Below, one piece after another: positions 22,725-23,054 of a stretch of DNA of 64,000 nucleotides. The position numbers and the translations under genes are program-made. The stretch's first letter is position 1, and each line of letters begins with the position of its first letter. Source of the DNA: Macrostomum lignano (Eukaryota); the NCBI GenBank assembly GCA_002269645.1, contig NIVC01001610.1, positions 62,001 to 126,000 on the forward strand. Direction: 5' to 3'. A model generated the notes under the pieces. The model did no database searches. It saw only the letters and a list, made by a program, of their open reading frames with translations, and was not told the DNA's origin.

Positions 22725-23054
22725 ATGGCTCGAACAAAGCAGACAGCCAGGAAAGCCGCGCCGCCGAATCTTTTTCCCATTCAGCAGCAGGTGCAGCAGG
22801 AGCAGATGCTGCAACAGCAGACCGCTAGTAACTTCTCAGAGGAAGAGAAAACTGAGACAGAAACTGGCTCGGAGACTCCGGACTCGGATGAGGAGGAGCA
22901 GCAAAAGAATCTGTTTTCCAACAACTTGGTGCGTCCTAATCGACGACGTCGCGACGAGGTCGCCGCCGGTCCGCAGAGCCAGTTGAGCACGAAAAATTCG
23001 CAGGCTATTCGAAATGCCTACGACCGCCTTCAACTGGAGAGAAACGCCCTCGAT
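22725..23054 (+). CDS. Exon 1: MARTKQTARK histone-H3-like N-terminus followed by a Gln-rich and acidic linker
   Basis: The first 9 residues after Met are identical to H3 residues 1-9, then AAPPNLF replaces STGGKAP. There is no histone fold. Confidence 0.85.

Follow-up and report, generated by a model that had tools for sequence, protein, structure and literature searches.

The stretch of DNA analysed here (the window, 64,000 nucleotides of a Macrostomum lignano contig) holds a gene on the forward strand that was modelled as 35 exons with canonical splice sites from 22725 to 59216, following the database protein PAA83725.1 (M. lignano, 3733 aa), to which the gene copy on contig C408 corresponds. 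From the N-terminus on, the protein carries an LRR, a likely zinc cluster, SPRY, a predicted Tudor/MBT-like barrel, a further LRR, Roc and COR, a pair of TIRs and finally CaaX (Table 1). Pfam matches were found for LRR, Roc, COR-A, COR-B and two TIR_2 stretches, with PF08477, PF16095 and PF25497 over the cut-off, and the presence of Roc followed by COR makes this a Roco protein. Together with the in-frame splicing, these domains bear out the original prediction of a non-histone signalling protein with a TIR output, and its layout is LRR-Roc-COR-TIR-CaaX. Despite a 'kinase' label in UniRef, no kinase domain was detected by Pfam after COR, where the TIRs lie instead. There was also no histone match in Pfam, the resemblance to H3 ending after K9, and Rfam gave 0 matches.

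The SPRY domain gave a weak Pfam match and was confirmed by a structure model and Foldseek (E 1e-13); the 1018-aa model was confident over SPRY only. ESM Atlas searches with exon 9 and the Cys cluster produced no usable match. The label of exons 2-4 as an N-terminal Cys-containing, FBXL-like LRR is in part our assumption. The C-terminus reads KKNRSKVCSVQ in two intact genomic copies, and 92 of the 121 family proteins scored end in CxxX. CaaX motifs direct prenylation, and the protein is likely prenylated at this site and membrane-bound. In TIR2 the motif SxxCxxE is present in 107 of 111 aligned rows, the remaining 4 being gaps, and where TIR2 has its Glu, TIR1 has L, M or I. The best PDB matches of a TIR2 profile were the TIRs of Cat1, RPP1 and Roq1 with the Glu aligned, and a PDB search with a partial TIR2 exon found no match; we take this position to be that of the catalytic Glu of NADase-type TIRs. 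The accessible part of an earlier account (PMC7075850) describes SARM1 as an NADase, and likewise many TIRs from plants and bacteria.

Two other features of the window were observed. Most of the long introns (e.g. 23321-24205, 26861-28820, 42723-44732 and 52178-54391) are taken up by a tandem repeat that differs from intron to intron and begins just after the donor. On the minus strand, the region from ~4900 to 15021 holds a gene in divergent orientation with ankyrin repeats (Pfam) and channel-like exons that appear TRPV-like by eye, with a candidate ATG at 15021.

Table 1. Positions of the features of the H3-tipped Roco-TIR gene in the window
Feature	Position	Strand	Remark
Trans-splice acceptor AG	22638..22639	+	Leader joined to 22640
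5' UTR of the mature mRNA	22640..22724	+	No ATG; in-frame TAG; holds 9-codon uORF that leader ATG would open
M and H3 residues 1-9 (ARTKQTARK)	22725..22754	+	A1-R8 common to three other family members
Exon 1: H3 tip, then low-complexity Gln-/Glu-rich linker	22725..23054	+	110 codons
Intron 1, GT..AG	23055..23162	+	Removed in 4/4 runs
FBXL-like Cys-containing LRR block, family-wide	23163..24601 (exons 2-4: 23163-23306, 24236-24361, 24454-24601)	+	From alignment
Exons 5-11	25223..32492	+	Second, degenerate COR in relatives' scores; no Pfam match here
Exon 12: Cys-rich cluster, likely zinc	35167..35522	+	In 66/122 family proteins and all four tail carriers
SPRY, RanBP9/10-like fold	37263..40200 (37263-37470, 37554-37674, start of 39910-41137)	+	Model, Foldseek
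Exon with predicted Tudor/MBT-like barrel	41431..41647	+	At the position of the paralogues' MBT; aromatic cage absent
LRR exons 5' of the GTPase	46262..47489 (46262-46591, 46983-47489)	+	
Roc GTPase exon	48211..48591	+	
COR-A and COR-B exons	49440..51271	+	
Two TIRs	51627..55008 (51627-52134, 54457-55008)	+	NADase-type Glu absent in first, kept in second
C-run one base shorter than in two other copies read	58417..58419	+	Frame shift before last exon; likely assembly error
Last exon: basic stretch, CaaX-type CSVQ (59202-59213), stop	58953..59216	+	

The gene's 5' end and the origin of the H3 tip

The ATG at 22725 lies in a GCCATGG context ten codons 3' of an in-frame TAG and opens MARTKQTARK, followed by AAPP and a Gln-/Glu-rich linker; a histone fold is absent. 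The start context, the TAG, the residues up to AAPP and the missing fold had been read from the sequence before and are confirmed. Transcript-like contigs start at 22639-22642 in all four runs (4 studies), whose RNA status is a software inference, and intron 1 is spliced out in all of them; none of the runs is registered as RNA. Three of these contigs measure 1.9-2.3 kb and reach past exon 2. One contig has 22 extra letters at its 5' end that correspond to the 3' part of the M. lignano spliced leader, which is 35 nt long (PMC8629364); it is the only contig with the leader among the 24 of 118 unaligned contig ends listed. The leader-derived 23-mer occurs at 58 other places in the genome. The sole ATG within 22640-22730 is the one at 22725, and the ATG that ends the leader would open an out-of-frame uORF.

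A spliced leader marks the 5' end of a mature mRNA, and its position here argues against an upstream coding exon. Such an exon was looked for, and among the joints listed for the four runs none connects 15000-22638 to exon 1. The motif is therefore N-terminal, as claimed originally. Exon 1 is also joined in frame to downstream exons as had been proposed, though the acceptor is not at 23205 but at 23163, 42 nt earlier in the same frame. Reads were placed on 15000-23320 only, so that beyond this region continuity to the 3' end is taken from PAA83725.1 and from relatives of like architecture.

The surroundings of this 5' end gave some further observations. The region 20646-21880, 5' of the gene, contains repeat-derived pieces with GTAAC/GTTAC inverted motifs and high coverage in the aligned runs, and is likely a non-autonomous DNA transposon. 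The three other copies of the gene diverge strongly 5' of about 22100. Four of the 58 genomic leader matches were read (L036-L039); no GTAAG donor follows them, and these matches could be repeats that contain the leader or could stem from retrocopying of trans-spliced mRNAs.

MARTKQTA is encoded at 35 places in the genome, namely 31 H3 genes (3 frameshifted) and the 4 copies of this gene. A back-translated pattern found 34 of these places (30 H3 genes including 2 with a frameshift, plus the 4 gene copies) and a shorter pattern added 1 frameshifted H3 gene; neither search found another non-histone locus with this start. The 30 nt of the tip are identical in all four copies of the Roco-TIR gene, although exon 1 of the C5245 copy is frameshifted. 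Compared with eight distinct genomic H3 30-mers these 30 nt show 5-9 differences, every one silent, and if the tip descends from H3, five silent and zero replacement changes have a neutral P of ~0.001. The 5' UTR and the next 30 nt have no similarity to H3 genes (UTR scores 12-17, with shuffle means near 14). The silent-only codon differences indicate that the tip is not a fresh insertion, and on the UTR scores at shuffle level a recent H3 insertion or promoter capture was rejected. The probability of ARTKQTAR arising by chance, given the K/R-rich composition of the family itself, is ~5e-10 per N-terminus. The H3 tip is thus real and expressed; judged by its codons and by its recurrence in three other family members it behaves like a selected mimic, and it is longer than known H3 N-terminal mimicry proteins (H3TMs).

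Among the H3 loci, a variant resembling H3.3 with an altered tail (SMGAKAPRKRL, RKTPLV) was seen on 4 contigs (L005, L013, L024 and L034), where its neighbour in tail-to-tail orientation is a standard H3.3 gene.

Distribution of the tail and of MBT-like domains in the family

A full-length search gave 120 relatives among the matches listed. ARTKQTAR opens 4 of the 107 long members that begin with Met, from M. lignano, Owenia, Mercenaria and Ylistrum, and the last three carriers are database gene models. Scored over residues 2-9 against the H3 tip, these four reach 8/8, none of the 107 members scores 5-7, a single one reaches 4, two reach 3 and all others stay at 2 or below; the chance expectation for such starts is ~6e-8. 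The look-alike starts of Capitella (4/8) and Tubulanus (3/8), and ARSQVSKQAPP in the nearest paralogue, were considered too weak and were not counted as tails. No new carriers appeared in the best 150 rows of a representative search. No congeneric orthologues were found either, as a search of shorter proteins with residues 1-420 gave 5 matches within the best 8000 candidates, all from M. lignano.

After MARTKQTAR the Owenia fusiformis protein (CAH1772675.1) continues with A-S-K-G-K, the Mercenaria mercenaria protein (XP_053405100.1) with Q-STGGKAP, which amounts to 15 of 16 H3 residues, and the Ylistrum balloti protein (XP_060062845.1) with R-S-H-H. Residues A1-R8 are thus exact in 4/4 while the carriers' sequence decays past R8, position 9 being K in M. 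lignano and A, Q or R in the others. The loss of K9 in the other three carriers indicates that the kept unit, as far as these four sequences tell, is A1-R8, centred on K4. A role for K9 had also been proposed, and this part of the original prediction is not supported: K9 occurs in only one of the four carriers, S10 is missing in the M. lignano protein and a function centred on K9 was rejected. With ARKS broken in 4/4, it is unlikely that the function common to the carriers is an H3K9-methyl/chromodomain role. The exactness of T3, Q5, T6 and A7 suggests that residues 1-8, with a free amine, are read by something.

In the Owenia protein a small-GTPase domain (21-189 of P0146) lies right behind the tail. 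It is presumably Rho/Rac-like, its P-loop being in our reading altered and its switch regions seemingly intact, and is possibly a second bait in the sense discussed below; small GTPases are a class often targeted by bacterial toxins.

The four carriers lie apart in a tree of 112 rows, in which the starred branches force 4 changes. A single carrier clade was rejected by the AU test (p-AU 0.0005) on 28 selected rows, the carrier group having been named after the 112-row tree and before the 28-row tree. With a single origin, the tail would have to be lost 13 times, or 9 times if only the 64 rows that apparently reach the true start are counted. Up to four gains of the tail would be the simpler account, and an early gain with later losses is the alternative, which the tree cannot separate from repeated gain.

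The nearest M. lignano paralogue is 68% identical over Roc-COR-TIR and lacks the tail; its start, MDKNFLSKKAPARSQVSKQAPP, is basic and unlike H3. Exon 1 of this paralogue has a similar, Gln-rich build and ends at the matching position. The paralogue (Mlig008399) has ~600 N-terminal codons beyond the database model, with exon 1 on L043:6859-7329 (G000:C2440) and on C2342. Basic N-termini are common in the family, as 45 of the 107 have at least 3 K/R in residues 2-11. With its expansions in individual lineages and its changing set of accessory domains (MBT, SPRY, PLAT and C2), the family looks like a defence family. Its MBT and SPRY subfamilies are of old age and have been conserved from phylum to phylum. 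In the N-terminal 200 aa of seven members (P0140, P0207, P0192, P0185, P0156, P0158 and P0229) poly-proline is followed by L..K..L[KR], which recalls WH2 actin-binding motifs.

A model of the exon at 41431-41647, made from 4 sequences, gave a small barrel (pLDDT 78) whose best matches were Tudor and MBT domains. The comparison with the PHF20L1 Tudor gave Z 7.9 (rmsd 2.4, 60 aligned), a value in the range that the comparison calls common, and that with an MBT gave Z 7.5 (rmsd 4.2, 67 aligned); no Foldseek match had E <= 0.001. The barrel lies 707 aa ahead of the Roc P-loop and the MBT of the paralogues at 632-775 aa (16 proteins measured). In an alignment with the MBT paralogues the cage aromatics (F, W, Y) are missing from the barrel, and the family MBT profile misses it. 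An MBT is present in 36 of 122 family proteins, and an MBT or a degenerate barrel in 67 of 122. One relative's MBT was tested and matches MBT repeat 2 of L3MBTL1; its D, F, W and Y are in place, and we take these to have the cage roles known from L3MBTL1-type MBTs. An L3MBTL-type MBT with the cage was noted in a CaaX-ended Roco-TIR subfamily with Lys-rich N-termini (P0163 971-1064, P0127 1208-1299 and 34 more). In Owenia and in Ylistrum a tail carrier occurs alongside an MBT paralogue. Sequence searches found no MBT in the tail carriers, the other three carriers gave no sign of a barrel either, and there was no MBT match on the Roc-bearing contigs found in the M. lignano genome, which number at least 14.

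Possible functions of the tail

The reading favoured here, held at rather less than even probability, is that the tail is bait for enzymes directed at the H3 tip and gates the output of the TIRs. The tip would be exposed on its flexible linker at the membrane, away from chromatin, where a foreign effector in the cytoplasm or a misplaced chromatin enzyme of the host would modify, clip or bind residues 1-8. A hit on the tail would relieve autoinhibition, Roc-COR would then cluster and TIR2 would signal. Removal of Met before Ala frees A1, Roc-COR modules switch through a dimerisation linked to the nucleotide, and clustering often leads TIRs with the Glu to cleave NAD+. The bait reading is favoured because of the predicted membrane anchor, the build of sensor, switch and enzyme, the varied accessory parts and the patchy but exact tail. 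The protein has the build of an integrated decoy, the H3 tip being the host-target copy fused to LRR, Roc-COR and TIR. Additionally, in the accessible parts of the respective papers, Aplysia members are placed among immune TIR proteins (PMC9334734) and LRR-AP-GTPase-COR proteins in conflict systems (PMC8195603). However, the bacterial H3 targets in the accessible part of a nucleomodulin review are K14, K9 and R42, with none at H3K4 or H3T3 (PMC7232420), and K14, K9 and R42 are mostly absent from the carriers. It also speaks against bait that most family members and the nearest paralogue are without the tail, that the MBT/SPRY subfamilies are old and cross-phylum, unlike the fast-turnover integrated domains of plants, and that 45 of 107 N-termini are simply K/R-rich.

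A close rival, though a doubtful one in itself, is a switch operated by the host, in which its own H3R2/T3/K4 enzymes would methylate or phosphorylate the tail and a host reader, an MBT paralogue or the protein's own barrel would read it and tune the GTPase. The MBT in 36 of 122 members, with an L3MBTL1-type cage in the one tested, the Lys-rich N-termini of MBT-bearing members and the co-occurrence of carrier and MBT paralogue in Owenia and Ylistrum fit this reading, as does the predicted barrel at a similar distance from Roc, and human H3 N-terminal mimics bind PHD/Tudor readers and NuRD in vitro according to the accessible part of PMC8166343. However, that barrel is without the cage aromatics, is missed by the family profile and has a best Z in the range called common, the other three carriers are without barrel or MBT, and no MBT was found on the at least 14 Roc-bearing contigs of M. 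lignano. It is improbable that the tail acts instead in the nucleus, where an N-terminal piece cut off on activation would compete for H3K4 readers or recruit NuRD, like viral mimics and FOG1/SALL-type tails. A free A1-R2-x-K4 is a reader epitope, as stated in the accessible part of PMC8166343, and the long low-complexity linker behind the tail could be cut; against this, no known nuclear domain follows the tail, and the cleavage site and nuclear fragment are purely hypothetical.

Equally improbable is a generic basic tag, a positive N-terminus for membrane binding or import for which H3 5' ends were a handy donor and the exact sequence irrelevant. The many K/R-rich N-termini and the basic, non-H3 start of the paralogue are in keeping with such a tag. 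However, the uncharged T3, Q5, T6 and A7 are exact in 4/4, the basic K9 is lost in two carriers and R in one, and the silent sites have drifted. The tip might lastly be a neutral relic or an artefact, whether a recent H3 fragment, a promoter capture or a gene-model fusion, given that H3 genes are numerous (31 places) and long-read assemblies contain errors. For the M. lignano gene this has already been largely refuted by the spliced leader-bearing transcripts, the four genomic copies and the UTR and next 30 nt that are unlike H3 genes, and as the tip recurs within this one family in three phyla, the reading is very improbable overall.

To return to the bait reading, its broadest form is more tentative and on balance doubtful. 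It holds that membrane-anchored LRR-Roc-COR-TIR receptors of invertebrates repeatedly captured the H3 N-terminus as bait, that NADase signalling would follow when H3K4 is attacked or chromatin enzymes leak out, so that the receptors would guard chromatin from the cytoplasm, and that the MBT-bearing sisters would be the complementary reader arm. An exact H3 tip on a predicted membrane protein is hard to fit with ordinary chromatin roles, and as the tip recurs in one receptor family of flatworms, annelids and molluscs, it is more than a curiosity and may be a pattern under selection with A1-R8 as the working unit. If the tail is bait, the protein would be an integrated-decoy receptor of animals, which predicts H3K4 effectors in pathogens of marine invertebrates. 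If it is a host switch, histone-modifying enzymes would be tied directly to Roco GTPase and TIR signalling. RNAi and transgenics exist for M. lignano, so both of these readings are testable there.

Comparison with known systems

Integrated decoys of plant NLRs such as RRS1-WRKY join a copy of a host target to a receptor of the LRR/NTPase/TIR type. In the protein described here the switch is Roc-COR and not NB-ARC, the copied target is a peptide and not a folded domain, and the link to an effector is hypothetical. The mimics in influenza NS1, G9a and LIG1 are short H3-like motifs of 4 residues that are internal or C-terminal, the cellular ones being of the K9 type, whereas all four carriers here retain the tip around K4 and have a broken ARKS. 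Compared with the enzymatic TIRs of Cat1, RPP1, Roq1 and SARM1, TIR2 has the putative catalytic Glu at the aligned position, but here this Glu-bearing TIR2 is paired with a Glu-less TIR1 behind a Roc-COR switch.

The Aplysia 'ROCO TLRs' have the same core architecture, with MBT and EF-hand variants, and by sequence the M. lignano protein belongs to their family; however, that account in its accessible part gives domains only, and the H3 tail, CaaX, TIR catalysis and function are absent there (PMC9334734). No report of an H3 tail on a Roco/TIR protein was found in the openly accessible literature searched; supplements of comparative-genomics papers could list such fusions. Likewise, no 'H3-tail' or 'H3_N' label occurs in the supplement files of PMC8195603 that were searched, with 2 of 10 'histone' rows viewed.

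There is also a close likeness to the H3TMs VRK1, BCL11B and PCLAF (Chen et al. 2021, PMC8166343), which in the accessible part of that work are non-histone proteins with Met-small-Arg-x-Lys at the true N-terminus. The H3TM pattern iM-Z-R-X-K is matched here by M-A-R-T-K at the first ATG of a leader-bearing mRNA, and Ala after Met permits removal of the initiator Met, as that work also states (PMC8166343). However, theirs is a pattern of 4 residues and they are enriched in chromatin proteins, as far as that part describes them, and here 8-9 residues are exact (15/16 in Mercenaria) on proteins of 2400-3900 aa with a CaaX end. Compared with this known mimicry of H3, the exact tip here is longer and recurs in a receptor-like family of invertebrates.
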